From Cystobasidiomycetes sp. EMM_F5 (lineage: Eukaryota), in NCBI GenBank assembly GCA_051047955.1, contig JBPGPT010000007.1, positions 186,001 through 250,000 on the forward strand: DNA of 64,000 bases, written 5' to 3'. The stretch's first letter is position 1. Every line of letters begins with the position of its first letter. Position numbers and translations under genes: made by a program. Under the pieces are notes generated by a model, which ran no database searches, was not told where the DNA came from, and saw only the letters and a program-made list of their open reading frames with translations. Positions 22,217 through 45,900 of the stretch are shown here, one piece after another.

Positions 22217-22422
22217 TTTCAGCTGCGCTTCATCTTAAAGAATGTTCAGTGTGTCTTCCAACGTGCGGCGGCTGATAGAGTGGAAGCTTTTAACATTGTC
22301 GAACATCAGAAGTCCATCTCGAATTCAGTCCATCGCAAATAACAGTGTAGTATTACACGGAATCCAAGCGTTGATGTTGTTTCCCTTATCGCAATCTTCT
22401 GTTGAGATTTCCTTCATAGCTC

Positions 22423-25400
22423 CTACGAACCGACACTTGGTCTAATCGGTCTCTCGTCTTCTGATTTGGCTTTCTTGGCAGGCTGTTCGTCGCCTGCTTC
22501 ATTCGGTCGTTTTAGTTGAGCTCCCTGCGCACGTACTTGATCGGCTTCTTGAGCAGGGCGTGGCGCCTTGCTGCTAGAAAAGCCCGCCAGGCCGATCAAG
22601 GCGGCCGCAGTATCCTCGTCGTCATAGTCTTCCTCGGGCCTGCTAGTATCGTGTTGCGATGCAGCGATTGGCAAAGGCTCTATTGATGGCGAGTGCGGTC
22701 GACCAACAGGCGGACGTGCTTGATTTCGCGATGACCCAGCTGCTCCAGCGTCATTCTGCAAAGAGACATTCACATACATCAGTAAGGAAGCGATAGTTGG
22801 GTTAAGACTGATGCCCACTCTACGTCGTGCGGCTGCCGATTCTCCCGCTACTCCGCCGACTACCTTTCGTTTCCGTCCGCTTGTAACCTGATGCGGAGGG
22901 GGAGCAGGAGCGTCTGTCAAAGCGGATTGATCTTCATGCCCATGATAGGCTCCTGGCGATTTGGCTGTACTTTTACGACTGCCGGCTCCTTGTCCTGCCC
23001 TTCCGGAAGATGACTGGCCAGGCTGGCGTCGATCTGGCGTATCAACAGCGGTATGAGCACCCCCTGGCGAGATTTCACGCCGTGAATTCTCCAACTCCCT
23101 TCGCCTGATCGCCTCCTCTTCCATCGTGCGATGAGCTTGCATCTCGCGCTCATACATAATCTCGCGCTCGCGCGGATCCATGGCTGCATCGTATCGCGGA
23201 TCGTAGCGTCTCGCATCCGGTGGATAGCCATAGGCACCTGCAGGAGCACGACCATGACCAGGTCCAGCACTGGGAGGTGCAGAATAGTAATCATGCGCAT
23301 AGTGAATCGGATGACCATTGGCATTCCCGCCAACTCGAGGCTGAAGGCTGCCACCAGCACCGATGGGATGGTCACGGTCATCGTATCTCGACATTCCAGG
23401 CGAAGGCGGACGACGGTGCATGCTTGCATGCTGTGGATAGTCTCGACCATGAGCGGGAGAGTGGAGCGGTGGAGAGTGCATATGATGAGTACTACGTTGT
23501 GCCTCTGCAGCATGCCGACCGTCTTGCGTTGTAGCCACTTTGCCACGCATACGTTCCTGATAATCTACATCCATCTCTGGAGGATAGCCGTACGATGGCG
23601 GTCGACCGTTTTCATCGTGATCTGGCATTTGGCGAGGTCGAGGTGACAGAGGCGGCGAATGAGGCAGGATCGGACGGTATCGAGGAGGTTCGTGACCTGG
23701 AGAATGATCATAACCAGGTCGTGGAGCCGGAGCGACACGTCGAGACGAAGGGTCCCTGTCGACATCCATTGGCGCAAGGACCCTGCTCGACATGCCAGGG
23801 TATCGACGATCGTCAACCGGAGCTTGTGCATAGTGGGGTGGGTACCCCGCTGCAACTACTGCAGACTGTGACGAGCCAGGTCGAGAGAAAGATTCGCGTC
23901 GTCCGCCATTGACAGGGTGCCTCGGTGGTGGATACGTCCCGGAAGGACCTGGTACACCTACCGTCGCAGAGTAAGCGGGCGGAGAAGCCAGCATCAAACG
24001 ACCTTCTATCTGTTCAGGCGGTGTCGACGATTCCGCCCCCAATGGAGCAGTACTCTTTGGATCAAAGACGGGTTTTGCGCCCGCTAGATCGAAATGAATC
24101 ATTGCCCACGATTTACTGTCTGGCATGATATCCAGAGGTGCTGGTGGGGGCGAAGCGACTTCACGACCCGTCTCTAGAGCCAATCTGAGCTCGTTGAGCC
24201 TGTTTGCAATGACGGTATTTGTCGGATCGAGTCGATAGGCGCGATAGTATGCATCGGTAGCGTCTGCCAGCTGATCGTTGCAATTTTCGTACAGGCAGCC
24301 TAGATTTTGCCAAATCTCGGGTATCCAAGGGTGGATGCGAACAGCGCGGGTGTAGGCGTCCAGAGCGTCGTGGAATTGTACAATGTTGAAGTAGAGCACT
24401 CCAATAGAACACCAGTAGGCAGAATTCTTGCCATCCCGATACACGGCTTGTTGGTACGCTTCGTACGCTTTGCCGTAGTTGTTTAGCTGCATGAATGCTC
24501 GACCTAGCAGGTACCACGAGAATGGATCTTGGGAATCTGTGTCGACATCGTACCCTCGTCAGCAGAGAGTCTGAGTGTGTCGAGCAGAGTAATGCGACAT
24601 ACCATATTCCAAACTTTGGGTAATGTAGCCTATACACTTCTCGGGATCATGAAACTGCGTATTCTCGCGCAGATATATACCACCAAGGTGTTGCAGGACT
24701 TTGGAGTGATCCGGTGTCGTACGCAATACTCGCTCATACGCATCTCTGGCCGCGACGAGCTATGTTTTCCAAATCCAAATCAGCCGGGAAAATATCACGT
24801 CTGAGACACACACATCAACATACATCCTTTTTGAGTTCAAGTGCATGCCCAATCTGATACCACACATCGACTTGATTCAACGGCGGGGGCGGATCAGCAA
24901 GTATGTAATGAAAGCACTGTTGGGTGGCATCGTTTAATCAAGACGGTCGCCATGAGGGCGTATGAATGGATTACGCACCTCGAGACTTGCGTCGGCTCTG
25001 CCTTGCAGCTTGTAAATGATGCCCAGTCTAAAGTAGACTTCGTCTCTCTTTGCAAAGTCTGCGTGACAGACGACATCGTGTCAGTTGGGAGAGAGAGAAT
25101 GAAAAGTCGTGAGGAAAAATAAGCCCACTCGGATCGAGACTGAGAACGCCTGCAAAAGCCTCTTCTGCATGTTCCATGGATCCGTAGCGATCGTAGAGTA
25201 TACCGATACCGTACCATAGTTTTGGGTCATTCTTCTTTACCGCTCTTGCGATTGCCTGCTGGTAGCACGAGTAGGCTTTTTGTAGTGCATTCATAAACAA
25301 GAGTGCGTGTCCGACGATGGACCACATCTCTCCTTCGTTTCCAACTTCGTCCACCGCCAGTGCCCTCGCTGCAAAGTCTACTGCGAGCTGCCACTTTTCA

Positions 25401-26296
25401 GCTTCCTTGAAGTACCTCGCCATACCCTGGAGTGCAACGAGGTGCAACGGGTTTCTCCGCAACGCATCCTGGTACGAGGCGAGTGCTCTGTCTGCATCTC
25501 CCATACTCCACGCAATACTCGCCAACTCTGCAAAACACCCCTCCGTCTCGCTCTCGAGCTTGTTGAGCGTGGGCGGGAGGAGACGGTGTCGTTCGATGGA
25601 ATACCCCTGCTCTTGTGCAGCTGCGGCATTCAGTGCTGCCCCTTTCTGAATTACCCACCGGACAGCGTCAGAGTGCGACTCGGCTGTCCCTCCCATGGGT
25701 GGCCCGCCAGAGGATAGAGGGGGTTGTCCGTGGACGGGGTGTAGGGTTGTGTGCGATTGCGAGTGTGCATGAATGTCGGGCGATACTGCCGGGGGGATGC
25801 CCGACTGGGGAGGGTGTCCGTTTGCATTCGCATTCGCATTCGAACGAGGATGCGAGTGTGAGTGGGATTGGGAGTGTGATTGCGACTGAGCGTGCAAGTG
25901 CGAGTCTGGCGATCCAGAGGGGACAATCATAGTCGACGGAGCGTGTCCGTTCAGAGTGTGCGGATGATGGTGATGGTGGTGTCGATGGTGGTGGTGATGG
26001 GAGTGCTGCCCATTCATACTCCCATCCCCGTTTGCCCCAACCAGCACTGCACTGGCTCCTGGAGTGTTGCCATTGACTGCTGCCCTCTGCTGCATGCTGC
26101 TCCCACTGATACTAATAGGCGTCGTCCTCCCCGTTGCGGTTGCACCAGTCCTGCTTACGACGGACGCTGAAGCATTTGCGACTGCGGCAGCTGTGGACGT
26201 GGTAGGAGTGGGTGCTCGAGTGCTGGATGCAATGGCGATGGCTGCAGGCAGAGTTGCCCCGTTGCCGGTGCCGGTGGATGGCGTCTGCCTGGCCAT
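22423..26296 (-). CDS. SSN6: General transcriptional co-repressor Ssn6/Cyc8 (TPR protein), multi-exon
   Basis: TPR motifs DPKLWYGIGILYDRYGSMEHAEEAF, YGKAYEAYQQAVYRDGKNSAYWCSIGVLYF, ALDAYTRAVRIHPWIPEIWQNLGCLYE; His-rich N-terminus and long low-complexity C-terminus. Confidence 0.93.
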
Positions 26297-26634
26297 GGGT
26301 GTAGAGTAGTATAGAGTGTGTGTAGTGTATGTGTGTGTAGTGTATGTGTGTGTTGATGGATTGACAGTGTCGATGGTGTTCAAGTTGCTGTTGTCCTTGT
26401 CGTTTGTATTGTCGTGTCTCTCTTGTCTCTTGTCTCTCACTCCTCCTCCACGCGCATCCTCCTTGTGCACACTCTCAGCGGTGGTGACGAGAGGTGGCCA
26501 GTGACTATTCGAAAGCCGTTAACGTACAAGAGGGGGTGATCGAGCAATGCAGGCGATGTGTGTATTACATAAGCATACGTTATGTACAGTGCAACACATA
26601 TCAATACAATGTATATGTCCGCCTCCTTCTCTCC

Positions 26635-26667
26635 CTTCTTCTTCTTCTTCTTCTTCTTCTTCTTCTT
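26635..26667 (+). repeat. (CTT)11 microsatellite inside a polypyrimidine tract upstream of SSN6
   Basis: Read directly from the sequence; flanked by CCCT-type repeats to about 26710. Confidence 0.9.
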
Positions 26668-26903
26668 CTCTCCCTCCCTCCCTCCCCTTCTCCCTCCCTC
26701 CCTCCTCCACCACCCACACGCACTCATCACGCAAACCACCGCATTCCGCGTTAGTTGGGCTGCTCAGGCACAGTACCTGAGCACACTCTAGGCCAGTTAG
26801 AGGTAGGCCGAGGCGGGGCATAGGCATACAGTGCTGACAAAGCAGGGGGTTGTGTAGGTGTACTCACAACGTTTTGATCATCTAGTCTACTCTTGTTCAA
26901 TAT

Positions 26904-28171
26904 TCACAACGTGTTGAATATCCTATCCCCCGCATCCCCGAGGCCAGGGGCAATCATACCGTCCTTGTTCAAGTCTTGGTCAACAGAGGCAACGTAGATT
27001 TCAAGGCCTGGACATTCCCGGAGGACGTGCTGCAGGCCGGGCATCGACGCCATGACGCACAGTAGCTTGATGGAGGAGATGGGCAGGCCGGCGTCTGAGG
27101 AAATAAAGGGGAGGGTGTTAGTGGGTAGAAAGTACACTGTACAAGGTGATGCTCGAGTAGACAGTACGCGAGTGCAACGCTCACAACTCACCCTGCAACA
27201 TGTTGACAGCAGCAGCAGCAGTCCCGCCAGTAGCAACGACCGGGTCGAGGAGGTAGACAATGTCGCAGTGCTTTTTAAAGTCGACCGGAAGTTTCGAATA
27301 GTACTCTGTGGGAGTAAAGGAAGACCGGTCCCGGTATAGCCCTAGATGGAACACGCAGGCTTCGGGGAACAGGGAGAGCATGGCTGGGGGCAGTGAAGTA
27401 CGTTTATTTGGAAAGAAGGCAGATCGTCATGACGAATTCATGGTGACGACAGTCAGCACACAGAGCAGCAGGAGAAAGATAACGATAACGACATGCACCA
27501 CATCAGCCATGCACTCGCATTCACATCGCATACACACTCCATACACACTCACTGTCCGTCATTGCTATTCCCGCCCTCAGAATAGGCGCCAGTCCGACCC
27601 GGGAAGCCAACTTCCAGCCAGTGTACGGTGCCAGAGGGGTAGATAGGCCATCGACAGGCTGCAAGTCGAGCGATCTGTCATATCGCGCAATCAAGTGTCG
27701 GAAGATATACAGAGTATTGATGCACGTTTGACACCAAACAGACAGCCGAGTAAACGTTAGGCGATGGATTCGAGCAGGTGTGATGACAGGATATGGTGTC
27801 GGACATTGAGATATATCGCATGTTGATCAAACAATCGCAGTCGTACATCGACAGTGCATATCGAACAATTCGTTCCATCCACGAGGTCGATGACCACGGC
27901 CGAGCGATAACGATAGCATTGAAACGACAAACAAAAGCATTGCAAAGCGCCCGTCAGTATACACTCATACACGAAACACAAGCAACGCGCACCTGCTCGC
28001 TTCTATCCCCAGGAGGGTAGTAAGCGTCGCGATGAGCCCTCGAAACTCATGGCAGCTTGTATTTACGTCCCTCAGCTTGGACACGATGGTGCTCGACAGC
28101 GGATGCGACAGCACATTCAGTGCGTCCAGGTCGTCAATGTGCGCAGGTTGCAGGGATTCAGGATTGTCCAT
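26904..28171 (-). CDS. Uracil phosphoribosyltransferase (upp-type), multi-exon
   Basis: VLSHPL...SKLRD...EFR, LAPILRAG, HLGLYRD, PRPP loop LLDPVVATGGT, C-terminal PGLGDAGDRIF. Confidence 0.92.
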
Positions 28172-28406
28172 CGTTGGCTATCGAGGCACTTTTGGTATGG
28201 CAGTTGGCGAAAGATTAGGGATTGTTCCAACAGTCAAAGAAGAAAGACAGGCAAGCATCGAAGCGGGTGAGTTGACTGCGTTACAATCGAGTATGTACAG
28301 TGATATATATACACACAACAAGATGTACTTCGAACGCACAGACTGATTACCTGAAGCAACGAGAAGGAAAGGAATCGAAAATGATGACCGAGTTGTGCGA
28401 GGAGGC

Positions 28407-29186
28407 TCATGGCGGCGGTGCTGACGTAGATGAGGAAGACGCCTCGCTCGCTGCTCCTCTTTGCATTCTGCATGTCCCATCAGTATACGTATCGACCAGG
28501 GAACGAGACTATACTTACTGTGGAAGTTCTGCCTCTATCCGCTCTCTTGCTCTCACAATCTTGCTTTGGATGTAGTGACTACTCGTCGCGTTCGACTTCA
28601 TCATGCGTTCGTAGTTTTCCAGCAGTTCCATCAGGAGCTTGTCGTCCTGTCCATTCAGCACGTCCCGCTTGACATTGAGGATATTGCACGCTTCATCGGG
28701 TGACATTCGGAATCGCCGTGATACGGCATCGCCAGCTTGTATCCCTGACCCTGCTTGCCCGGCGCCTAAGGCTGGACCACCCGCTCGCATGTCTGCAGTT
28801 GGGTCGGATTGTTCAAGTCAGCGCCACCATTTCTTCGTTGTTAGCGCATGATACGCATTGTGTTGCTTCTCGGGATGACTGGATATAGTGTCTGTGATTG
28901 ATTGGGAATGACTTACTTCTCCCCGCTTGCTTCCACGCTTCGACGAACGCACGTCCGAAAACTGATGATCCAAGCGGTATAAGCAATCAGCAGTCGTACA
29001 TGCCAAAGAATGAACAGCCTGCTCACTCTGTCCGCCCGCAATGACTATCTGCGCCATCACCCTCGGAAGAGCCTGTCGTGTCAGTCGTTGCAGATGAATA
29101 CAGAATGATGCAATTTCGAGAATCAGCATTCTCCCATAATATCGGCCAGGAATGGCATCCAGGCTATTGGATCGCAGACTGACCAT
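28407..29186 (-). CDS. PAM16: Mitochondrial import motor subunit Pam16/Tim16, multi-exon (first exon is apparently the ATG alone)
   Basis: AQIVIAGG..FGRAFVEAWKQA, MSPDEACNILNV, YERMMKSNA...SHYIQSKIVRARERIEAE; ATG at 29186 is followed immediately by a GTCAGT donor. Confidence 0.92.
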
Positions 29187-29702
29187 GATGGATAGACAGA
29201 CTTGTACAGAGTTGTGGTTGGACGAAAGTCAGCTGTTGCTGCTCGTTATGCGATCGTCTTGGTCAAAATTGCAAACGATGTTGCTTCACGGCTTGGTCCG
29301 CTACAGATTGACAATGTAATCCCATGCCATCTACGTACTCAGCCTTTCCTGACAGCCGACCTGCTATTCATGTTCTGCGATACAGCAAGCCGCCATCCCC
29401 CAATTTCGTAGCCACTTCGGCTTCCTGCTTCAGCGCGAAAACAACGGAGCGCACGCAATCCGGATATCCTTCCTTAGACCATGCGAAGCTCTGCTGGGTT
29501 CCGCTTTTGTCGGATGTGGAACAGGAGTAGCCGCCGAAGGGCTGTGTCCCTTTCTCTGCGATGCGACAACCTCACAGTTGGTGCGCAATGATTGGATGGG
29601 TGCTCTATCTTTTGTCTCTTCCCTGCTCGACACGACTTCAACAATCCAGGTTGTCTCGCAATAGAGAGTTTACCTACCACATCCTTTCCATCTCTTCCTA
29701 CG

Positions 29703-30092
29703 ATGCTGTCCTCAGCGCTCGCGCTACTACTCTTTTCCAGCGCCATCAGCGCCATCTTTGCCGCTCCTATCGCCTCCGATGCAGGTGTGCAGAGCAATGC
29801 GCAGATCGGTGCCGTTACGGCAGAACAAAGTTCACGCAATCCGGCCACAGCTGGAGGGGATGAGCAATTCAATACAAATGCAGCCTGGACTAACGAGCCA
29901 CCACTCACTACAGCTGTTACTACCCTGCCAAAGCATGGTACCATCACCGATACCTACACCTACAATGCTTACCCTTCAACCATCATTACTTCCGGAACGT
30001 ACACGTCTTCCGGACGGATTTACACGTACACCTACGGTTTACCGACGGGAAAGCCATCCACGTTACTTGACATTCGGACTTATACGTACTAG
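29703..30092 (+). CDS. Small secreted Thr-rich protein, array copy 1 (N-terminal extension, short loop)
   Basis: Signal-like MLSSALALLLFSSAISAIFAAP; HGTITDTYTYNAYPST...YTYGLPTGKPSTLLDIRTYTY; intronless. Confidence 0.75.
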   Translation: MLSSALALLLFSSAISAIFAAPIASDAGVQSNAQIGAVTAEQSSRNPATAGGDEQFNTNAAWTNEPPLTTAVTTLPKHGTITDTYTYNAYPSTIITSGTYTSSGRIYTYTYGLPTGKPSTLLDIRTYTY

Positions 30093-30652
30093 CGATTTAC
30101 TATCGTAATTTACGTGGTCTGTGCTCAGAACACTTTGTTGTTTGTCTGCGTTGTGTGAATGCCTCTCTTACACCATTCTACACATTTCGTCTTATTTGCC
30201 TTGCCAACCAAGACGCCGAACCTCGTCACTCTTCTTTCATCATACATGCAGAGAAGGCCATACGCATCGGCAAACCTACAGCAGACGAAATCCACGGACA
30301 ATTTACCTGATCGCTTCACGCCGAACTCCACCCAGTGGCAATCAACGAAGCATTTGGACAACCTGGATCTCAGGGTAGCACGGGTTGAAGCCGAGGAGCA
30401 ACACCTTTCCGATTCTTACCTTAGAATCTTTCCCTTACACCGCGTGCGAATATTTGGTCGCTGTCGCAAGCAGTGCGAGCGGTGCTATCCCTTTCTCGCG
30501 TGCTGGAGTATAAGTGCTCGCTGGAAACCTTCAGGCCTTTTTGCTTTCTATCATACCGCCTTCCATAAAAGTGAACAATCGGCTGTCAGCAATACACACT
30601 CTCTTCACAAGCACGTTCACATACAGACCCTGACACCAATCATCATCCCACA

Positions 30653-30961
30653 ATGCATTTCACCGTTCCAGCTATCGCTTGTATCGCCCAGGCTGCTCTG
30701 GTTCTGGCTGCGGCTCTACCTCAAGGCAGCCAGCATGGCACTCAGGTGGTCACATACACACACATATCGTATGACAGCACCAGTACCTCGTACGAAACGC
30801 GCACATACACCGAAGGAGAACACCGTACACTGAATCTGTCACCGGGTGTTGCCGATTCTGATCCGGCTCGCTGGTATCCTGCTACAACCGTGACGTATGC
30901 TCACGCCATTCCCACTGGCAATGCCGTCACCACCGTCGAGACTACCACTTATACTTGGTGA
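30653..30961 (+). CDS. Small secreted Thr-rich protein, array copy 2
   Basis: Signal peptide plus HGTQVVTYT...TRTYTEGEHR...ADSDPARWYPATT...IPTGNAVTTVETTTYTW; TATAA at 30509. Confidence 0.85.
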   Translation: MHFTVPAIACIAQAALVLAAALPQGSQHGTQVVTYTHISYDSTSTSYETRTYTEGEHRTLNLSPGVADSDPARWYPATTVTYAHAIPTGNAVTTVETTTYTW

Positions 30962-31494
30962 AGAGGGCAAAATCCCTGATTGGCTGGGCTATTTATGGCT
31001 GCTCTTTCCGGCTTGTTCTCTCACATAAGCCTGAGAGATACCATTTGTTGTCCGTACTCTTATCCGATTTCCATACTCCCTACCGTTCCCAGTCCTCCAT
31101 CCTGTTCAAGCTCGAATCAAGTTGGTAAAAGCTCGCTAGTATGTCGCTTCTTGCTCGGTTATAAGACCTCTTCTGTCCATCCGATTACAATTTTCCACCC
31201 AGATGTACTGAGAATGTACACCACTGCTATATGGCCCAGACAGGATCACAGCTTCATCACACATATCCCTTTATCGTCCTGTGACTGATTCGCAGCTATC
31301 GCGAGCCATCCGGGAGTGCACCGCTTGCTCGACAGCTTAAATATTGAGCGATGACCGAATGCGCACACCTGCTCTTTATCTTGCACTCTGCGGGATAACA
31401 TTGCCTTGTCTAGCCTGTTGAGGTTGCGCGTCTAGCCAAACCCCAACTCTCACTCGATACTTTCACCATCCCACGTCTACGCAAATACTACATC

Positions 31495-31794
31495 ATGTTG
31501 CACCGGACTACTCTACTCATGCTCTCCATTATCCAAGCTCCTCTAGCCCTGCCGCAAGGCGACATACACGGAACGGAGACATTTACATATACATTCACAG
31601 AGCACGAAAGTACCAGTGTCTCTTACTCGACGCGCACGTAGACCGAGGGAGAAACACGTCCACTAAAGATATCACCAGGCGCCGGCGATACCGATGCAGC
31701 TCGCTGGTACCCTGCCGCAACCAGCACGTACGCACATTATATTCCGACAGGTAATGTGGTCACAAGCGTCACGACTATGACGTATACCTGGTGA
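31495..31794 (+). pseudogene. Array copy 3 with a single in-frame TAG (absent from the ORF track)
   Basis: MLHRTTLLMLSIIQAPLALPQGDIHGTETFTYTFTEHESTSVSYSTRT*TEGETRPLKISPGAGDTDAARWYPAATSTYAHYIPTGNVVTSVTTMTYTW; TAG at 31639-31641 aligns with TAC (Tyr) in copy 2. Confidence 0.85.
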
Positions 31795-32453
31795 ATCTGT
31801 TACACACGTTGCTGCATGCATACATGGAGCACAAAAATGGCTCTGCCACTGTGTTGGGTAGTAGCCCAGGTGTGCTGTTGCTGTAACGAGTCAGAGCACA
31901 AAAGGTGACACGTCACTCTAGCGAGCCAAGGCAATAATCGAGCGATGGTGAAAGACTCAGCGCTAAGTCGTCCAAAATAGCTCGTCATTCCCATCACAGA
32001 GAAAATGGTTTGTAAACTCCGATCTCTGTTCACAATTTGAGGACAACTTCGAACGATTTCTGCTCCCCATGCGGGATGCTTGCGGAGACAGCCGTAATCT
32101 CACACAACAATCATCAATGGCCTGGAAGGTTCGTCTGCGAAAGTAGCGCGTTTTCACCCCCTTTCTCGCGGATAGCTTGCGATGCTACCTCGCTTACCTC
32201 GCGCCACCAGCCTTTGTGGTGTGGGAGAATGCGCATTCAGAACGAATATGGCTATGCGGCCCCTTTCTTGGCCAACCCAAGCCACTCCAGCTCTATAAGA
32301 GGGTGGCATCACAGTCTTCACACCTCGGATCTGCATCACATACTTTCTTTGAGGACTTCCACACACACACAGCAAAGCTCTCTTCGCCACGCCCACCCTT
32401 TTTCACGTCGACATCCTCACGCTCCTACGTATACCCTCGCATATATATAGACA

Positions 32454-32738
32454 ATGTTCGTCTCCATTCTGTTCGTTCTTGTGGCGATTGCCCAGGCCAC
32501 TCTGGCTTTACCGCTACGGCCCGCCCACGGAACTGACACCGACACCTACACTTATTTGGTGTGGCCTAGTACCAGTACAGAATTGAGAACCGTCACAGAG
32601 ACGTATTACAATATATGGCATTCGGGACTGTCGTCGGGTCCTGAGGCAACGCCTACGACCCCTACAAATGTCTACACATTAGTGTGGCCGACTGGCGATT
32701 CTTCCCTTACCACCGAGACCACGACCTCAACATGGTAA
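32454..32738 (+). CDS. Small secreted Thr-rich protein, array copy 4 (subfamily B)
   Basis: Signal peptide plus HGTDTDTYTYLVWPSTSTE...WHSGLSSG...VYTLVWPTGDSSLTTETTTSTW; TATAA at 32294. Confidence 0.85.
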   Translation: MFVSILFVLVAIAQATLALPLRPAHGTDTDTYTYLVWPSTSTELRTVTETYYNIWHSGLSSGPEATPTTPTNVYTLVWPTGDSSLTTETTTSTW

Positions 32739-33544
32739 ATATGATGCGCAGGCCAATTGCAGTTTCGATGGGAAGCAGAAGCGTGATGCGTGCACCAGGC
32801 ACGCTTGGCAGCAGTGTCAACGAGCGATCACTTTGTGAACGCCGTAGAGCTATTGAAGGCGATAGATACCCTTCCATGTGTGTCTCGTACTCGGCAAACC
32901 CCGCTATCATTCTTCCAGAACTCCTTGCTGTGCTGCCCTCATATCGCACAGATCCGTCCATGGTTTCCTCCGACTAGGTTAATTTGTTTGCTTACGGTAC
33001 CTGCCTGGTGCATACATCGAGCTTCCACGCTGTGTACCAATTGACAATGCTCAGGCAGCTGTTCGATGCTTAAATAAACAGACCGAGTATGAAATTGCCT
33101 TATTCCGTTCTCGCGGAGACTGGCATCGTGGTGAGCATTCTTCAATGCCGGCGAAGTCTTTGGGTTTTCTGCATTATCGCTTATTCAGCCGGTCCAAGAG
33201 GCTCGACATGGAAGCGTACACGGTTCCATACAGATGACTACCGTTCCCTTCATCATGCTGCGCACACGGATATGCGCGCAAATTTAAAGCAGGTATATCC
33301 GAAACTCACATGGGTGATTCCCGTAGAACCTCGCTTACCTTGCGCCATCAGCCTTTGTGGTGTGCGAAATATATCTATCGCAGGGATGGCTGTGTGATCC
33401 CTTTCTGTTCTACCCTCATCTGCTCCCGTTCATAGATATTCATGAAATCTGAAACAAACCTCGCTCCACATCTTGGTCCTGAACCACGCTTTTCAGTACT
33501 TCTCCACCCACTTCCCCACTCACCTTTTTTGCACCGTATAAAGA

Positions 33545-33835
33545 ATGCTTTACTGCACTCTCTCTGTACTCGCAATGGCGCATGTCGCTTTGGCCAGGCC
33601 TCTTTATAGACCACCACCACCTCACGGAACGACTACTGTCACTTATACTACCAGTGCATGGCCCAGCACCAGCACTGAGTTTCTGACATTGACTCAGACT
33701 GGTTACAATGTTTGGCATTCGGGCTTGTCATCTGGTCTGGAGGCGACCCCAACAATTTTCACAACAGTTTACACACTCGAGTGGCCAACCGGCGAGCAGT
33801 CACTTACTACACAGACTGAGACCTCAACATGGTAG
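33545..33835 (+). CDS. Small secreted Thr-rich protein, array copy 5 (subfamily B)
   Basis: Close paralogue of copy 4: HGTTTVTYTTSAWPSTSTE...WHSGLSSG...VYTLEWPTGEQSLTTQTETSTW. Confidence 0.85.
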   Translation: MLYCTLSVLAMAHVALARPLYRPPPPHGTTTVTYTTSAWPSTSTEFLTLTQTGYNVWHSGLSSGLEATPTIFTTVYTLEWPTGEQSLTTQTETSTW

Positions 33836-34356
33836 GTTCTCATGCAGGGTCCTCCAACGCGGAAGCGTGCTGCGCTTGTAGAGACAGAGTCCATACCCTG
33901 CGTTTACGAGATATATCACGCTACTAGAATGACCGCCGCAGAGCTTACGCTGTCGGTTAATACTACCATATTTAACCCCACTACCCACCAAATTTCGTTA
34001 CAAACGCTTCGCAATACCTCGTTACGGGCAGGGCCAACTTCATGCCTCTACCATCAACTGCAGTGCTGTATGTGCGCATCTCAGGCCATCTATGGCGACT
34101 ATGGGAAAGGCTTGGCGTAGGGCTATGTTTTCAACTCATCGCCTTTTCGCAATCATTACGGCCAATGAAAGGCCGCCAAATGCAGTGAACACCGCCGTCT
34201 TATCCTTTGCGTCCCGCATACAGGCCTCATCGTTACTTTGCATGTGTTGCTGAAGCTGCACACGCATTGACATACACTCATCATCTCCCAGATCTTCCGC
34301 TTGCGACACATTGTCACGACGCCGTCGCGCTCTAATCTCTCATACGTCACTATAGG

Positions 34357-34665
34357 ATGCTTCTTCCATGCTTCATCACAATAGGCATCGTAACGGCCGC
34401 CATCGCCTCACCCGTCGATTCCAGGGTTGATCAACACACAACCGTGACGCTTACGACGACCCTTGAAGTGTACGATTTCTTCACATCATACGATGTCCGC
34501 ACATACTCAAGAGGCCAAGTCCGATATGTCACCGTCGAGCCAAGTTTGGCGGAAGCAAGTCCAGATATTTACTTCCCTGCAACGACGGTAACGTACACTC
34601 AAGAGATGGCGACGGCCGCGCCGCATACTCAGATCGTCACCAAGACTTACACATACCGCCCATGA
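34357..34665 (+). CDS. Small secreted Thr-rich protein, array copy 6
   Basis: Signal peptide plus HTTVTLTTT...RTYSRGQVR...ASPDIYFPATTVTY...IVTKTYTYRP. Confidence 0.8.
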   Translation: MLLPCFITIGIVTAAIASPVDSRVDQHTTVTLTTTLEVYDFFTSYDVRTYSRGQVRYVTVEPSLAEASPDIYFPATTVTYTQEMATAAPHTQIVTKTYTYRP

Positions 34666-34950
34666 TCTGCACCTGTTTTTTTCCGTTGTTTTGCTTTTCG
34701 TGCTACGACACCCGTTGTTGACCTATGTTCCGAGTTCTAGCTTGCCGACCAGGAAAGCGCCAGTATCTGTGCAAGTTTATAGTTTGGCAAGGCTGACATA
34801 ATGTTCGTGAAGAAATCTATTACATCAGACCATTCAGAAGGCTGCATGTCTTGATTACTCAAGCTACTCTACGGCATAGTGGCTACAAGTCACTGTGTGG
34901 TCCCTCATCAATATCGACTGACTCTCAGTCGCACTCTATTGTTTCCTCTG

Positions 34951-36169
34951 TCACTTGCCCGTCAATACTACCAGCTTGCCTGTAGCATGACCATCTTCCA
35001 TACGCTTATGTGCCTCAACAATCTTCTCGAGACCTTCGTACACAGTATCAATCGGTACTTTAGCAACACCTTGCTGCAGAGCGTCAATGAAACTCTGTAG
35101 ACCTTCCCGAGTGAGATCTTCAGCACCTCCACCGTAGCTTGTCAAACGGACGCCCTTCGGTATAAATTCTGTAAAATGACATCAGTCCCAAGGTCTGAAG
35201 GGGCGCACAGTAACGAACCCATCGGATACATGTCTTTAATGGTCCAATCATCATTCAGCATACCAGTAAAACAAGCTGTACCCTTAACTTTGATTGCGCG
35301 AAGTGTATCGCGTAAGGCTGTTGCTCCGACCAGTTCGATGGCGCAATCAACGCCATCCGGCTGAATGTCTCTGACTTTTTCCGAGACTGCTCCGTCGTCA
35401 ATGATGACATGGTCCACACCAATCTTCTTGAGGGAATCAGATTTCCTCGCATTTCGCGTTGTCGAAAGGACGGTCATACGTCTCTGCTTTGCAAGGACAG
35501 CAGCACACATGCCCACAGAAGAAGTACCTCCGCGAATGAGAATGGACTGTCCGGCCTTGCCATCGCAGCCAACATCGAGCGACCCCAAAGCCGTCTGTAG
35601 CATCTCCGGCAGAGCACCCAGTTGTCCCCAGTCAGGATTGTCGGCCTCGAACTTGATGACGTTGGTTGCTAGAACGCAAGTCATCTCGGCATACCCTCCA
35701 TGTCGTGCTGTAGATATCAGATTGTTGTCAGATCTTATACCTTCCCCGCAACGTGTGCCCATTTCGCGTACTGCGGCCCATTCCTCCCATCATTGTTACG
35801 ACCTAGCATCAAGTCAGTGCGAGTACAGATTGCAATGCCTGTAAAGGCCTTACGCACCTTGTCGCCTGCAGCAAACTCCCCGCCTGGACATTCCGCTACC
35901 ACTCCCGTTGCCTCGATACCGAGGACCCTTGGAAATGTTACGCCTTCAGCAAGACCCTTTCTGGTGTGATACTCTGGTGAAACCCATGTTAGAGCTGCGT
36001 CTGCCTCGTAAGGGGCACCCTGCGCACCAGAGCGGTTCAGTCCAAAGGCCTTGACGATAATCAAGACTTCGCCATGGCCAGGCTTTGGAACGGGCAAATC
36101 TACAATCTTGAGGCCCTCTGGCGGAGCAGGAGCGCTGTCTAGAAGCACGGCTCTCATAGTGGAAGCCAT
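34951..36169 (-). CDS. NADPH:quinone oxidoreductase-like protein (MDR family), multi-exon
   Basis: GEVLIIVKAFGLNRS, FPRVLGIEATGVV, GGYAE, LIRGGTSSVG, GVDCAIELVG, AHKRMEDGHATGKLVV. Confidence 0.9.
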
Positions 36170-36896
36170 TGTGCTGTCTCCTGCAGTGGTCGCGCTCTCA
36201 GCAGCCAACTTACACCTGCCGATAGCATTCACATCACCACCGCCTCGGCTACGGGATCACACTGACCAAACACAATACGAATTACCGTCAACTTTGATTG
36301 CTACTGTCAGGCTGCAGTGTTCAGTATCTACTCATTCATCGATATCGATTCTGTGCGCAGGCCTATCTTGCAGCCTATGGAAGAGCGTGAAAAAAGTACG
36401 TCCTCCCTGGGCTTCGATAGCCCTGTCGACGCTGCTTCGTTCGAGCAGCTCACAGTACCTTGTTTGTATGCGTCGCTTCAACTCAGTCAATCGCGAACCG
36501 TCAGTGTGATATACTGTGTGCGCTGACGCGCTCGGACGCATTCCGTACCGTGAGACGATTCTGGCGAGTGAATCAAGGAATGCCAGACTCCCATGCATCG
36601 CTGCACACCAGTTCAACAGCGAACATGCCAAGAACCTTGCAGACAATGGCCACGGCTACAGGACGCTTGTCACCGGGTTGCGCCCGAAATTCTCAGCAAC
36701 GCGCCATTGGCATCCTGGGAGGCGAGTGTGTCAGATGTCCTTGCGATACAGTCACTAGAAAAAGGGAGGTTAGTATAAGTGGACCGCTTGCGACTCAAGC
36801 ACCCTTGCTTCTGCACCATACAGTGAGTAACCAAGCACTGCTAAGCTCGCCATCCACCCAATCTATCACTCTCGTTTATTACGTGCCACCGCTATC

Positions 36897-37202
36897 ATGA
36901 TGCTCGTCCATACAACCCTGGCACTGTGCATTGCTGCGGCCAGTGTTTCTGCTATTCCCGTGCCCTCCGCTTCGACTAGCGAGACGGTTACATGGACTAT
37001 GGCCTCCTATCCAGGCTACACTACTGGCTCCTCCACATACACCTATTCCAAGGGCGAGATGCGTCCTGTACCGGTAGCAGAGGACGAGGCACGAGCAGAT
37101 CCTGACAGATACCTGCCCGCGACAACGGAGGTTGCTATTTCGCTCGTTCCCACTGGCGAACCCGTATGGTACACCACAACTGCGACCTTCGCATGGAAGT
37201 AG
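36897..37202 (+). CDS. Small secreted Thr-rich protein, array copy 7
   Basis: Signal peptide plus ETVTWTMASYPGYTTGSSTYTYSKGEMR...ADPDRYLPATT...PTGEPVWYTTTATFAWK; TATAA at 36774. Confidence 0.88.
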   Translation: MMLVHTTLALCIAAASVSAIPVPSASTSETVTWTMASYPGYTTGSSTYTYSKGEMRPVPVAEDEARADPDRYLPATTEVAISLVPTGEPVWYTTTATFAWK

Positions 37203-37628
37203 CACCGGCGTGGCATGATTGGGTGTCAGTAAAGCAGTGTATTATGTTTTCTCAATTTGGTTCAGGCTGCCGCAGAAGAGGAATGCAGACAGCGAGGAAG
37301 CTTACATTGAGTATGGACGAGGATCACCTGACGCATGCCTATAACCCAGTCGTTTCCGCACTTACTGACAGAGATAACCCAGCTTACGTTGAGATGGACT
37401 GTGCTGCGAAATCGCGACGTCAGCCGATAAATTCAGGCGGCGTGGCGATATGACGGACGCTTGCAGTAGATCCATAGGGGTACGTTCCCTCTCTCAGATC
37501 CGCTATGCATGCGCCGGTATGAAATGGAGTGAAAATAGCACTGCGTCAATGGCACTTGGTCTCGCGATACCAGCCCGACTCATTTCAGGCCTTTCAAACC
37601 GCATATATCAGTCCCACAAACTAGCACC

Positions 37629-37830
37629 ATGACCATCATCAAGGCTTCACTCGCGCTATTCATGGCCGCTACCGCTAAATAGCAGCGGCGTGAGCCGTGT
37701 TCTCTTCGGTATCTGCAAATGTGGGGCATGCAGATCCTGATAAACACAATCCTGCAAAAACGGTGGCCAAAGTTCACCTTCTCGGGTCTGTCGATCCCTC
37801 GAACTATACCACAGCTGCAATGGTCGGTAG
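37629..37830 (+). pseudogene. Degenerate array copy with early stop, internal deletion and frameshift
   Basis: MTIIKASLALFMAATAK* (signal-like) followed in another frame by SVSANVGHADPDKHNPAKTVAKVHLLGSVDPSNYTT, which aligns to the VAEDEARADPDRYLPATTEV...PVWYTT half of the neighbouring copies. Confidence 0.7.
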
Positions 37831-38392
37831 CTACCCACTCCTCAGTATCGCTACGCAATGCAGGCTTATCTGCCAGCCTGTGCGGCTGCTCAACAGATAT
37901 TTACATCGTCTCTGGGCTTCGACAGCCCTATCGTAACTGCTACATCGAAAAGCCGACAGTGTACCGTCTGTATGCGTATCTTCGACTCAGTCAATCGCGG
38001 ATATCCAGTTCGAAGGATGCGCTGACGCGCTCCAACGCTTTCCATACCCTAAAAAATCCTGGCGAGCAAGCCAAGGAATGCCATTCCCGCGTCGGTCGCT
38101 GCACACCAAAGTGACAGCAGGTATGCCAAGGGCCTTTCTCACTCTGGTCACGGCCGGAGGATACTCGTCACCGGGTTGCCTCCGGGTATCTCACCTGCCC
38201 TCCATTGTAACCGCTGGGACGCCAGCGTACAATAAGTCTGCGATGCATCCGCTCGGGAAGAGGGAGGTTCGTCCAACAGGGTCTTTGTGCTTTGTTCACT
38301 CTCGCCTTTGCACCAATCAGTGCACCACCCATCTCCGGCTTTGCACTCCACTTTCTTCCAACACTTTCGTCTCTTCACATAGCGTAATCACA

Positions 38393-38698
38393 ATGATGCT
38401 CGTTCACGCAACCCTCACACTATGCATTACCGCCATTAGTGTTTCCGCTGCACCCGTTCCGGCACCTTCGACGACCGAGACAGTCACATACACCTCAGCA
38501 TCCTACTCGGATTACATCACTAGCTCGTCCACGCGGTCCTTGACCGTAGGCGAGATGCGCACTATCTCAGTACCCGAGGACGTGGCACGAGCAGATCCTG
38601 ACAAATACCTCCCCGCGACAGAGATCGTTAAAGTTTCGGTGATCCCGGTTGGCGAACCTGTCTGGTATACTACAACCGAAACATATGAATGGAAGTAG
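38393..38698 (+). CDS. Small secreted Thr-rich protein, array copy 8
   Basis: MMLVHATLTLCITAISVSAAP...GEMR...ADPDKYLPAT...PVGEPVWYTTTETYEWK. Confidence 0.88.
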   Translation: MMLVHATLTLCITAISVSAAPVPAPSTTETVTYTSASYSDYITSSSTRSLTVGEMRTISVPEDVARADPDKYLPATEIVKVSVIPVGEPVWYTTTETYEWK

Positions 38699-39204
38699 TA
38701 GCAGCTTTTATCTGAAACACTACTTCGAGCGGCAGAAAGCTACGTGTTGTCTAGTTTGACGCAGTAGCCAGGGCGGCGCAGAGTCAGTTCCGGCGAATTG
38801 ACAACAGTAGGATTGCTATAGTAGTCTGTCTCTCCTGCTGCCAAGCTAAATGATGCGCTGACGCGCCACAATCCAGCAAGCCAAGGCGTACCAGACTTCC
38901 ATATTTCACTGCACATCACTGTACCAGCAGATTTGCAAAGACCCCTTCTGACAGTGTTTACGCTTGGATGACGGTCGTCACCGGCTTGCGCCCGACATTC
39001 TCACTGGCGCGCGGTTGAGATGCTGGGAGGCAAGTGTGTCAGATGAACTTGCGGTACAGTCACTGGGAAAGAGGCGGTAGTATAAGTAGACCGCTTGCGA
39101 CTCAACCACCCTTACTTCTGCACCATACAGTGAATTACCGAGCACTGCTAAGCTCGCCATCCGCCCAAGCTATCACTCTCATTTACTCACATACCACTGC
39201 TATC

Positions 39205-39510
39205 ATGATGCTCGTCCACGCAACCCTAGCACTGTGCATTGCTGCGGCCTGTACTACTGCTGTCCCCGTTCCATCGGCTTCGTCTAGCGAGACGTACACA
39301 TTTACTATGGCCTCTTACCCTGGCTACAGTACTGGCTCGTCCACTTACACCTATTCCAAGGGCGAGATGCGCACTATACAGGTAGCAAAAGACGTTGCAC
39401 TAGCAGATCCTGACAGATACCTGCCTGCAACAACGGAGGTTGTTGTTTCGGTTGTCCCCACTGGCGAACCAGTCTGGTACACTACAACCGAAACATACGG
39501 ATGGAAGTAG
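39205..39510 (+). CDS. Small secreted Thr-rich protein, array copy 9
   Basis: Near-duplicate of copy 7 including promoter (TATAA at 39081); ADPDRYLPATT...PTGEPVWYTTTETYGWK. Confidence 0.88.
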   Translation: MMLVHATLALCIAAACTTAVPVPSASSSETYTFTMASYPGYSTGSSTYTYSKGEMRTIQVAKDVALADPDRYLPATTEVVVSVVPTGEPVWYTTTETYGWK

Positions 39511-39969
39511 CGACAGCATGTCATAACATATTGTCGGTAAAGAGAGTGTACTATGTATTTCGTTGATTATGACACAATCCCACCACGCGAGCCCGTATCT
39601 TTACCATCGTTGCAGGCTTTACTAACAGATGTCTACTTTCTGACGTCTAAACCTACTGTGAAGAGTGACAGGATGAAAATTGACCATTCGCATGCATTCG
39701 CCAATATCATGCAGGGTGACCGGCTCGCTGTCCTGCGATAGAGCCTGGGTTCGCAGGCATCGAGCCATGTTGCGGTGTGAGACCTCCCTCGCCGGAGCGC
39801 TTCCATCGGACTCGACCCTAGTGATGAGAAATAGCTGTGCAGCCACGACGCGGGAAGTTCTCAAAAAGCGACAGCGCTATGACCACTCTTGACTTCGTGT
39901 TATCCGCTCATACACACACACTTTTCAAACAGGCCTGCAAATCTACTTCAATATCGACACTCACATCTA

Positions 39970-40290
39970 ATGCTGCTCAAGGCTACATTTGCGCTCTGTG
40001 TGACTGCTGCCGTCGTTTCCGCTGCTCCACTAGTGACCGTCGAATCTGTCATCAATCCCACTACTACCGAGGTTCGCACCATCACAGGTCTTTCATACGC
40101 TGGCTCAATCCTCTCCACATCCTGGCGTACCCTCACCAAGGGCGAGCCGCGTCCCTTGACGAGCCTACCGAGTGATTTATCTCAGAGTCCCGATAAGTAC
40201 TATCCCGCAACGACTATGGCAAACGTTGCACTTGTCGGCACCGGTGTAGGTACTCCTTACACCACGGTCGTTACGCACATCGCCAAGTAG
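39970..40290 (+). CDS. Small secreted Thr-rich protein, array copy 10
   Basis: MLLKATFALCVTAAVVSAAP...RTLTKGEPR...SPDKYYPATT...GTPYTTVVTHIAK. Confidence 0.82.
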   Translation: MLLKATFALCVTAAVVSAAPLVTVESVINPTTTEVRTITGLSYAGSILSTSWRTLTKGEPRPLTSLPSDLSQSPDKYYPATTMANVALVGTGVGTPYTTVVTHIAK

Positions 40291-42970: not shown

Positions 42971-45900
42971 ATGGAGACTGACAGCGGTGCTGCGGGTGCT
43001 GAAGGGCAGGAGCTCGAGGTCGCTGACGATATCGAAGCATCAAGTGTGCGTACTGCGCTGAGTGGAGCTGAAGCAAGCTGCAGCCGGCTGACAATTGCTC
43101 GACTTGCATGACCGTCCTGGATGATCGACTCGCAATATGCTTCCCATGGATCCCAATCCTCGCGCATCCTGCAGTACTTTGCCCTCACAGTCCTCAATAA
43201 CGGCGTCACCCTCCGCCTGGCTGACCCAAACCCCCAAATTCCAGCGAGATGTAACCTATTTGCCGTTTCAAACGTCTATGGGCTGGCAGTCTGGGTGACT
43301 TCTAGGGGTCAGTGAATGCTCATTCGCTTCTACACAATGCAATGCTCATGCATTCCTCATTCACAATCAGGCTTTGCGCTGGCGAAAACGGCAGACCTTC
43401 GACAACTATACATCTCTACGGCGCAACGAACGCTAGCCAATGTCACACCCTTGCGTACGGTGGAAGCCGGTCAAGGAAGTCTTCATGTATTGCGCTTTGC
43501 TTCAGCCGATACCCTGTTGGTCGCGACAGGCCCCGCTTTACAAGGCGGAATAGGCCTATGGCAATTGAAAGGGCTGGTCGATGGTTCACAAGTCAGTCGA
43601 GATTGATATCACATGCATGAATCCATCTAAATCATTGTCGTATCTCTGCAGACATCTCCAGTACATATCTTCCCGCCATCAGGCTCTTCTCCGATAGTAG
43701 ACTTGCTTCCGAACCCGAGCGACAAGCCAGAGCTCTTAGCCGCTCTCTCAGGAGACGGTCACATGACTATGTATAATCTCATTACGCTATCAGCTACCGC
43801 TCAATTCGGTTCAGGCTTGACCTCGGGTCTGTTGACTCACGTTCATCATGCGAAGTTGACCGTAAACTAAATAAACTCTTGTATCTGCAGCATGCTGGTC
43901 TGTGAAAGGCAAACAGATTGTATGTGGGGATAGTACTGGAACTCTAACCCAATATACACCTGAAGGGAAAGCGGCAGCAAGTGTTCCGCCACCTCCGTCA
44001 CAAGCTGGCAGAGTACCACTGGACATCCGCTGGGTAGAAAATCTTGTCTTCTTTGTCACTTATCAAGACCCGGAGAACACGATGGTGACAGACGTCTTCA
44101 TCCTGAGCCGTGAAAAGAAGGATGGTCCAGTGGCGTATCAGCCCATACTTGATCCGCTCATGGTAGAGAACGCCGACCGGCCAGAGGCACGATGGAGCGT
44201 GTGGCTCAGAGGCTGGCATCCTTTCAAGCATCTTTTATTGGTCGGTAACAGCACGAGCAATACCATTGGCCATATCGGTCAGGCTCCGACGGAAGAAGGC
44301 GGCAGCCATGTCGTATGGTCGCAAATCAAGAATGATTTATACACAACCCTGCCTCTAGACTCTGCCACGACATCGCTGGAGCTAGATTGTACAGCGACAG
44401 AGCCCCTCGCACTGTCCGAAAACTCTCCCAATACACCGCTACCGGTTCTGTGGGCTTACGATACAAGCGGAACACTGTCTGCTTGGATCGTCGCGAACAA
44501 GCTAGGACCGATATATCCAGGTATACAACCCGCCGTGGACATCCTCAACCAAGCCCCTATCGGATCATCTTTAATGCAACAGTCAGACAGCGTGCAATCC
44601 ATGCCCAGCGTCACCACGCCACCTCGACCCGCACCTGCCTTCGCTAGTCCCGCACCAGGAGGATCTCCTTTTTCCTTCTCCTCGTCTCTCAATACTGCTT
44701 CTGCGCTGGGTAGTAAAGGGCTTTTCGCTCCAGCCTTTGGACAGTCTGCTTTTGGGCAACCTGCCGCACCTGCATTCGGACAATCAGCCTTTGGACAGCC
44801 AGCTTTCGGGAAACCGACTGCTTCACCTGCTACTACGCCTACCGCCAATCCTTTCGGCAAGAGTAGCTCTACGACTAGCGGCTTTGCAAGTTTCGGCAAG
44901 AGCGGTGGGCAAAGTGGCTTTGCAACACCTGCATCCGTCGATTCGCCGTTTGCTTCTCGATCAACCTCACCTGCGGCCACACCCGCATTCGCCTCCGCTG
45001 CGCCGTCGACCTTCGCTTCCGCTGGCTTCGGAGGTGCTGCAGCCTCAACACCAGCGTTCGGGCAGCCTAGCGCTGCTTCTCCGTTCGGTGCGTCTATCGC
45101 AGGGACTCCAAAGGATGAACCTCTCAAATCTATCTTCGGGAAAGCCGCAACTTCTGCGACCACATTTGGCACCACCACTTTCGGCAGCAATACTCCATCA
45201 TCGACTGCCTCACCAGCAGCTTCCGACTTCAGCTTCGGCAACAAAACGTTCGGAGCTGCCGCGGAGCCTTCAGCTAGCGGATTTGGTGGGTTGCGCGAGT
45301 CGAATGGGACCGGCTTCACCGGTGGTGATAAGCCCACCAAGCCGCCAGGTCTCGATGACGAGGATGCCGAGCGTCTCGAACCTGTCAAGATCAGCAACGG
45401 TACTGGATTTGAGGAGTCCGATTCGGAAAGCAGTAGCAAAAAAGCCGACAATGCGAGTTCGTTGCCCTCCATGGCTGGGTTTGGCTTCGGAATGCCAGCT
45501 GTCCAGCCTGACAGCACTCGGTCGACGTCTCCATTCGGCAATTTTTCCTCCAATAAAGCGACTCCTGCTGCATCGAGCCTAGTCAGTACTTCTGCGGCAA
45601 CGGGCCCGAGCCAATTCTCGTTCGCGGGGACGTCCAAAAGTCCGGACATTTCTGCTTCGGCTTTCGCTAAGCCTTCGATGTCGCCGGCGGCGGAGGAGTC
45701 GAAGAAATCTGCCTTTACCTTCACCTCGTCCGACAGCAGTAAAGTAAGTGATAACAAGGCAGCAGCACCATCTGCACCATCTCCATTTGCAGTCAAGCAG
45801 ACAGACAGCACGTCTCTTGCAAAGCCGACTGTATCGCCAGCTTTCGGTGCACCGACAGCCTTTGGACAGACCTCGGCCTTTGGACAATCCGCCAGTCCAT

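Follow-up and report, generated by a model that had tools for sequence, protein, structure and literature searches.

A tandem array of genes for small, threonine-rich and cysteine-free proteins, predicted to be secreted, in Cystobasidiomycetes sp. EMM_F5

The window analysed here is a stretch of 64,000 nucleotides from Cystobasidiomycetes sp. EMM_F5 (GenBank assembly GCA_051047955.1, contig JBPGPT010000007.1, positions 186,001 to 250,000, forward strand), and all coordinates below refer to it. Between positions 29703 and 40290 it carries a tandem array of threonine-rich genes, with every copy on the + strand. Judged from its sequences, the array appears to be a lineage-restricted, tandemly amplified family of real genes for small proteins with predicted signal peptides. 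Within the window it comprises nine intact genes coding for 94-129 amino acids (aa), a further copy interrupted by an in-frame stop, and a relic. It is an orphan family in the familiar class of clustered fungal small secreted proteins, and its design is unusual, being free of Cys and built around a conserved ladder of Thr. On the basis of structure models we tentatively favour, at somewhat less than even confidence, an open beta-sheet without a core of its own, whose conserved face would lie against a second copy or a flat surface, in a surface or coating role.

Coding status and composition of the array

Copies are named here by their first position. The ratio of nonsynonymous to synonymous divergence (dN/dS) was computable in 18 of the 36 pairs of sequences and ranged from 0.11 to 0.59, while the remaining 18 pairs were saturated. 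In the three pairs with dS below 1 the ratio was 0.28, 0.29 and 0.36. The value of 0.29 belongs to the 39205 and 36897 copies (dN 0.118, dS 0.402), and those of 0.28 and 0.36 to the 38393 copy compared with its two closest paralogues. The stop-containing 31495 copy gave 0.25 against the 30653 copy at a dS of 1.25, which is near saturation, and the 32454 and 33545 copies gave 0.11 at a saturated dS of 2.55. Ratios well under 1 indicate purifying selection on the protein, and the open reading frames (ORFs) are thus coding and the genes real.

A profile made from eight of the ORFs was run against the six-frame translation of the window, and recovered those eight at E-values from 1e-44 to 2.5e-29. 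The aligned paralogues were 30-79% identical to the first aligned sequence (alignment A1). The most upstream of the eight, 30653-30961 (102 aa, profile E 4.5e-40), is included in alignment A1. It is followed by 32454-32738 (94 aa, with a shorter central loop) and 33545-33835 (96 aa), both of a subtype with the motif WPSTSTE, and by 34357-34665 (102 aa), where ATAAP replaces PTG in the second turn. The copy at 36897-37202 (101 aa, P0001) was found as an ORF and by the profile, and was modelled by AlphaFold2. Further downstream lie 38393-38698 (101 aa), 39205-39510 (101 aa, 79% identical to the 36897 copy) and 39970-40290 (106 aa), the most divergent regular member, with a GTG turn and an isoelectric point (pI) of 8.3. 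All eight were supported as ORFs, in the alignment and by the profile. The peptides quoted in an earlier, sequence-only reading of this DNA could all be located: ETVTWTMASY, TGSSTYTY, ATTEVAISLV, WYTTTATFAW, YPG and PTG in the ORF at 36897-37202, from which most of its peptides were taken, and WPSTSTE in the ORFs at 32454 and 33545. The range given there for the family, 30653-39510, was too narrow at both ends, since the array also includes the intact gene at 39970-40290 and a loop-less relative at 29703-30092.

This outlying member (+ strand, 129 aa) was recognised by the profile at E 0.003. Behind a start that resembles a signal peptide it has some 50 aa of low complexity and then four Thr/Tyr strands with the turns PST, SSG and PTG; the long central loop is absent. 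In BLASTP it matched the 32454 copy across the first strand and turn, with 15 of 25 residues identical (E 9e-07). It had no Pfam match, and its only database match was itself. The stop-containing copy (31495-31794, + strand) carries an in-frame TAG at 31639-31641 in place of a Tyr of the other copies, and the rest of its frame is open. Both halves around the TAG matched the profile (E 1.2e-09 and 9e-13), and the tblastn alignment spans the stop; the copy is a pseudogene, an allele or a sequencing error. In the relic (37706-37813, + strand) only residues 59-94 are recognisable, at 44% identity (tblastn E 3.3e-05, profile E 2.8e-05).

Features of the predicted proteins

The first 17-21 residues of each protein form a hydrophobic segment, after which comes an invariant Ala-x-Pro, and in the alignment small residues precede the Ala. 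Alignment positions 1-19 are hydrophobic, A19 and P21 are invariant, and AlphaFold2 placed a low-confidence helix at 5-16. We read this N-terminal segment as a predicted signal peptide with cleavage after the Ala. In the eight aligned copies the mature part would then be 76-88 residues long (8.4-9.7 kDa). The 655 mature residues of these copies include no Cys, in agreement with the earlier statement that the proteins are free of disulfides, and dibasic sites were found in none of the eight. The pI was 4.4-5.3 in seven of them. Thr makes up 21.4% of the mature residues, Ser 10.1%, Val 9.0%, Pro 8.9% and Tyr 7.3%, Ser and Thr together accounting for 31.5%. In a fungal secretory pathway some of the Thr and Ser would be likely to become O-mannosylated. 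Four strand-like segments, each some 10 residues long, make up the mature design together with a pair of short Pro/Gly turns and a central loop of about 25 residues.

The predicted mature N-termini start with X-Pro dipeptides, with Pro invariant at +2. The sites are 36954-36965, 38450-38461, 39262-39273 and 33596-33625, and the equivalent position in the other copies; the youngest copies have two or three such dipeptides in succession, and the 33545 copy has a run of Pro. Dipeptidyl aminopeptidases act on N-termini of this X-Pro pattern, and could therefore trim the proteins step by step.

The conserved Thr face and the central loop

Column entropies were computed over nine sequences, and residues were assigned to faces after inspection of the alignment. 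Over all four strands the mean entropy was 1.14 bits on the face carrying the Thr ladder (20 positions) and 1.78 bits on the other face (24 positions). The difference was larger in strand 1 (0.79 versus 2.01 bits) than in strand 4 (1.10 versus 1.69 bits). Ser and Thr occupied 113 of 180 residues on the Thr-ladder face against 69 of 214 on the other, whereas hydrophobic residues (43/180 versus 86/214) and charged or polar residues (5/180 versus 42/214) were concentrated on the opposite face, which is variable and mixes aromatic, aliphatic and charged residues. The ladder is made of Thr, Ser and Val and is nearly free of charge. T32, T34 and T97 are invariant in all nine sequences. The triplets T30/T32/T34, T43/T47/T49 and T93/T95/T97 are conserved, and their register across strands depends on the topology. 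As far as can be judged from the alignment, conservation of the Thr face is the reverse of what is seen in an ordinary globular protein.

The central loop falls into two parts. Residues 51-63 are its most variable region (mean entropy 1.71 bits), and residues 64-75, with the motif A-D-P-D-x-Y-x-P-A, are the most conserved (1.27 bits), P74 being invariant where present. The proposal that the paralogues differ in exposed loops thus fits the first half of the loop but not the second, which is not hypervariable. From this pattern of conservation, the putative working or packing surfaces are the Thr ladder and the latter part of the loop.

Tests of sequence patterns

The regular spacing of Thr that had been noticed in the sequence was partly borne out. 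In seven of the eight copies, at most 68 of 1000 composition-matched shuffles reached the observed number of TxT motifs; the 39970 copy, with 647 of 1000, did not stand out. Alternation of Thr with aromatic or aliphatic residues was less general, as T-[VILMFWY]-T was enriched in four copies (at most 27 of 1000 shuffles) but not in the other four, and alternation of polar and hydrophobic residues was enriched in two of the eight only (at most 41 of 1000).

It had also been suggested that the two halves of each protein mirror each other around the central loop. The turn motifs do lie at matching positions, with aromatic-Pro-Gly/Ser in the N-terminal half and Pro-Thr-Gly in the C-terminal one, but the mirror symmetry as such is not a property of the sequences. 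When each mature sequence was aligned locally to its own reverse, 159-498 of 500 shuffles equalled or exceeded the score, so that all eight copies were within the shuffle range. A gapless column test at family level was equally negative: of 2000 shuffles, 1717 did as well as the reverse register and 1614 as well as the direct one. In only two of the eight copies (1/500 and 3/500 shuffles) did the N-terminal half show a notable direct similarity to the C-terminal half, and hhalign of one half against the other gave a probability of 1%. At family level an internal duplication or palindrome was thus not supported by the shuffle tests or by hhalign. Having failed the reverse, direct and hhalign tests, the halves share composition and turn motifs with no demonstrable palindrome or repeat.

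Predicted structure

The best AlphaFold2 model of the 36897 protein had a mean pLDDT of 81, with blocks of residues 31-100 at about 90 or more; the other four models had 66, 59, 59 and 56, and the pTM was 0.39. Strands were placed at 27-37, 40-50, 76-86 and 90-100, and short helices at 62-72. The four peptide segments singled out in the sequence-only reading coincide with these four strands, and they occupy equivalent positions in both prediction jobs.

A Foldseek search with the best 36897 model gave no match at E 0.001 or better. All ten entries listed at its top were pore-state stems of beta-pore-forming toxins, which indicates that the model is one long two-stranded ribbon, a shape deduced from these matches and not from coordinates. 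The best model of the second job matched fragments of barrel walls. The architecture of one long hairpin proposed earlier therefore agrees with the ribbon-like 36897 model, but the predictions disagree with each other, and the protein may be either such a hairpin, long and kinked, or a meander of four strands. Local hairpins are favoured by the Pro-Thr-Gly and Pro-Gly motifs, both of them classic sequences of tight turns. The loop-less 29703 relative is compatible with both topologies. By residue numbering the Thr positions fall on one side under either strand pairing, and the face pattern can therefore not separate the two. Neither of the best models contains a core.

Search for relatives

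No credible Pfam match was obtained for the nine proteins at E up to 1. The single ALMS_repeat row, for the 38393 copy (E 0.0034), scored 17.7 bits against a cut-off of 30 bits over the predicted signal peptide and mature N-terminus, and was rejected as a chance match. A search of 5.8 billion clusters returned the window's own proteins only, and the same held for the credible matches of the profile among 1.84 billion representative proteins. Two non-self matches, the bacterial repeat proteins P0005 and P0006, were rejected as compositional matches amplified by repeats; one of them had an hhalign probability of 3.4%, and the other consisted of Big_9/cadherin-like repeats. A sequence-profile search of the PDB gave no matches at E up to 10. 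In the ESM Atlas the best cosine was 0.84, below the usable range, and no named cluster was found.

Among metagenome contigs there were 597 pattern matches, none of which was confirmed by tblastn. A degenerate DNA pattern for D-P-D-x-Y-x-P-A-T-T hit 24 loci that matched the profile at the motif only, with a best profile E of 0.001 in a search of 411 sequences. No literature on a like family was found by word search, a method which cannot find sequence families.

At 94-129 aa the proteins are well within the length usual for fungal small secreted proteins (under about 300 aa), and the lack of a recognisable domain, the narrow distribution and the tandem cluster are further features shared with this class. 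The Sec39 ORF of the window has its best named relative, 46% identical, in the Pucciniomycotina yeast Cystobasidium minutum, and its other named matches are all from basidiomycetes. An identity of just 46% indicates that this fungal lineage is poorly sampled, and the orphan status of the array may partly reflect this.

Interpretation and alternatives

In the reading that we tentatively favour, the mature protein would be an open beta-sheet lacking a hydrophobic core of its own, and its conserved Thr face would be laid against a partner outside the cell. Since an open sheet of this kind buries nothing alone, it probably acts via a partner apposed to the Thr face. This partner would preferably be another copy, in a dimer or a stacked sheet; alternatively it might be a flat extracellular surface, for instance a wall polysaccharide. 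The role would be at the cell surface or in a coating, rather than enzymatic. Of the earlier interpretation, by which each protein is one long beta-hairpin that must oligomerise, the hairpin is partly supported, by the ribbon-like model, and the oligomerisation would be a prediction.

Several points weigh against the open sheet. The AlphaFold2 alignment consisted of eight paralogues from one genome, a single model out of ten from the two jobs exceeded a pLDDT of 70 (the rest being at 66 or below, with pTM of 0.39-0.42), and long hairpins are a known outcome when AlphaFold2 is given alternating sequences. Because the faces were assigned post hoc, the Mann-Whitney p of 0.0085 for the difference between them is optimistic. 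With about 20% of charged or polar residues on the non-Thr face, a simple picture of buried aromatics and exposed Thr fails. The conserved A-D-P-D-x-Y-x-P-A loop hints at a specific binding site, which a pure coating role does not explain. On a charge-hydropathy plot seven of the eight copies fell marginally on the folded side and one on the disordered side, all near the boundary, and their 9% Pro and 31% Ser/Thr would be compatible with a glycosylated chain that is largely extended. No runs of RNA carrying the array sequence were listed among public runs.

The proteins might accordingly be mucin-like, that is, largely extended and heavily O-mannosylated wall or secreted chains whose predicted strands do not form a definite sheet. 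The content of Ser/Thr and Pro, the lack of Cys, the borderline charge-hydropathy position and the mean pLDDT of at most 66 in nine of ten AlphaFold2 models all agree with this. We nevertheless consider it rather unlikely, as Thr is conserved by position (the invariant T32, T34 and T97) and not by composition alone, the period-2 face differs in entropy (1.14 versus 1.78), TxT exceeds shuffles in seven of eight copies, and the turn motifs are at fixed positions. Moreover, every indel lies outside the four strands, whereas mucin-like tracts usually tolerate indels. An effector or killer toxin, whose monomers would bind a specific target in another organism such as a plant host or a competing microbe while the array diversifies specificity, seems unlikely to us. 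Small, secreted, lineage-specific tandem families are the usual signature of fungal candidate effectors, and the present family, predicted to be secreted, small, lineage-specific and tandemly duplicated, resembles them; loop 51-63 and the non-Thr face vary among copies, and a binding site could lie in the conserved A-D-P-D-x-Y-x-P-A loop. A run labelled phyllosphere metagenome also contained a short upstream stretch, a weak point that carries no evidence on habitat or expression. However, the gene-wide dN/dS of 0.28-0.36 in young pairs gives no sign of diversifying selection at that level, the proteins are acidic and not cationic, and the best models matched no fold typical of known effector families. 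It is quite improbable that the protein is a compact monomer, where the ribbon folds back at Pro/Gly and two hairpin layers form a small sandwich without assembly. Both halves do carry a Pro/Gly motif in their middle, and hydrophobic and aromatic residues, which occupy about 40% of one face, would be enough for a small core, yet neither of the best AlphaFold2 models is compact, their matches are extended hairpins or open pieces of barrel wall, and the pTM is just 0.39-0.42.

Other alternatives give the Thr ladder or the ribbon a more direct function. Binding of ice or of a crystal face, with the charge-free conserved ladder as the functional face as in arthropod antifreezes, is very improbable in our view. 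The T-x-T-x-T runs of strands 1, 2 and 4 are indeed the most conserved and almost free of charge, and proteins of about 9 kDa, predicted to be secreted and encoded in a tandem multigene array, would suit it, such arrays being typical of antifreeze genes. Against it stand the limit of four strands, the lack of a solenoid in either model, the lack of a match to any antifreeze Pfam family, and the facts that Thr-rich secreted proteins are common in fungi and that nothing indicates a cold-exposed organism. Fungal ice-binding proteins, in the excerpt available of PMC11645318, are of another type (DUF3494). A pore former without a head, in which hairpins of several copies would join in a membrane beta-barrel like the stems of aerolysin and anthrax PA, appears highly improbable. 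Ser/Thr alternation is typical of pore-forming toxin stems, and pore-state stems filled all ten entries listed for the best model. On the other hand, the loop of about 25 residues, net acidic in the copy that was modelled, would have to form the tip of the hairpin, the mature protein of 76-88 aa consists of strands and loops only, with no head domain, and 20% of the residues on the non-Thr face are charged or polar. A more speculative proposal, which we regard as very unlikely, takes the Thr ladder as a working surface and has the copies joining edge to edge or face to face into a wide, flat Thr array or a Thr-lined barrel, and so forming an ice- or crystal-binding surface free of solenoid and disulfides, or a head-less barrel. 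Such a design would be a de novo product of a single lineage of basidiomycete yeasts, amplified in tandem like antifreeze genes.

Comparison with known systems

For the open sheet with a surface role, repellents and hydrophobins are the nearest functional analogies that we would propose. The repellents of Ustilago maydis, peptides derived from Rep1, are described in the excerpt available of PMC3133707 as small secreted proteins forming amphipathic amyloid fibrils on the cell surface. They are cut from one polyprotein during secretion, whereas each array protein has its own gene and start and dibasic (Kex2) sites are found in none of the eight. The likeness is one of description; the fibrils are those of the repellents, and assembly of the array proteins would be a prediction. 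Hydrophobins are, in the portion seen of PMC5445765, small proteins secreted by fungi which assemble by themselves at interfaces into amphipathic films. They often form multigene families, as the array does. They are defined by eight Cys according to the part consulted of PMC10672791. These Cys form four disulfides, while the array proteins have no Cys among 655 residues and no Pfam family match. Thus the separate genes without dibasic sites show that the array proteins are not repellents, and the lack of Cys that they are not hydrophobins.

Resemblances to antifreeze proteins and to Flo1-type flocculin repeats had been pointed out from the sequence. They hold for composition and the TxT motif, but no Pfam family of either kind was matched at E up to 1. 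Arthropod antifreezes come from multigene families. In the passages available of PMC13080227, those of beetles, moths and a spider bind ice through TxT to TxTxTxT arrays on flat beta faces. Within the scope of the same excerpt, the TxT antifreezes of Tenebrio, spruce budworm, Rhagium and Clubiona share with the array proteins, as these are predicted, the small secreted form and Thr ladders on a flat beta face, but are beta-solenoids with the motif repeated over 4-8 coils, whereas the array proteins have four predicted strands, no solenoid in either model and no sequence match. The likeness to Flo1 consists of Thr-rich composition with scattered aromatics. Flo1 has long repeat arrays, in contrast to single-domain proteins of 9 kDa without the hydrophobic C-terminal tail that precedes a GPI (glycosylphosphatidylinositol) anchor. 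The only solved shapes resembling the best model are toxin stems (anthrax PA, CDTb, iota Ib, lysenin, aerolysin, epsilon toxin and Vibrio cytolysin). Such a stem is a long twisted two-stranded ribbon, stable only inside an oligomeric barrel, and belongs to toxins with a soluble head or receptor-binding domain, which the array proteins are without.

Clusters of small secreted proteins that are specific to one lineage are common among fungi, and few of them have been characterised; in that sense the array is ordinary. It is unusual in having no cysteines and a regular four-strand design, and in that selection keeps the polar Thr ladder rather than hydrophobic positions. If self-assembly is true, the family would offer a simple, genetically tractable model of partner-dependent beta-sheets and possibly, in a lineage of yeasts, a substitute for hydrophobins or repellents. 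Binding of ice or of a polysaccharide crystal by the Thr face, if it occurs, would make the family a new minimal scaffold for such surfaces, and if the proteins are disordered mannoproteins, the finding would be routine.

Upstream regions and neighbouring genes

The three youngest units were duplicated along with about 590 bases upstream. In a blastn self-comparison 36311-37202 matched 37814-38698 at 67%, and 36574-37250 matched 38882-39559 at 80%. Conserved blocks mark the co-duplicated upstream region at 36311-36896 (+ strand, alignment A4), and several near-identical blocks are retained among 36311-36896, 37814-38392 and 38882-39204. In the 36897 and 39205 units a TATA-like GTATAAG precedes the ATG by about 125 bases. 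Together with the shared blocks it is a candidate regulatory element of the youngest copies, as far as the sequence indicates. No 8- or 9-mer was common to more than four of the ten upstream regions of the array.

Two public runs from different studies each contained one contig (265 and 248 bases, with 2-3 differences) over 36373-36641. In both runs the contig lies upstream of the 36897 copy and outside the gene, and the remainder of the 3.3 kb compared was unmatched. The occurrence of the same piece in both runs suggests that it exists in several copies or is conserved to an unusual degree. Nothing was matched in the region, including 36373-36641, by scans for Rfam families and tRNAs.

The only interruption of the array is a gene for a zinc-dependent dehydrogenase (ADH_N and ADH_zinc_N) on the - strand at 35142-36232. 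It consists of two overlapping ORFs in different frames, suggesting a short intron or a frameshift. Over 30001-40000 GC skew was strongly negative (-0.08 to -0.18), whereas the five 2-kb windows immediately upstream (20001-30000) had values of about -0.06 to +0.07; both the Thr-rich (ACN) genes and their CT-rich leaders are rich in C on the + strand.

Elsewhere, the long ORFs of the window carry CAND1-type TPR, Sec39, TPR, DOT1, ABC-transporter, FMO-like and zinc-dehydrogenase domains. The Sec39 gene (- strand, 12223-15568) is split into one ORF at 12223-13089 and another at 13415-15568, with a presumed intron between them. At 43902-47438 (+ strand) lies an open frame of 1178 codons with no Pfam match, and antisense to it one of 615 codons at 44456-46303 (- strand); the 1178-codon frame codes for a large protein that is not annotated, or else the region is biased in composition. 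At 5375-5986 (- strand) an ORF matched LtrA (low temperature requirement A) at E 1.1e-11, a family name mostly known from bacteria.

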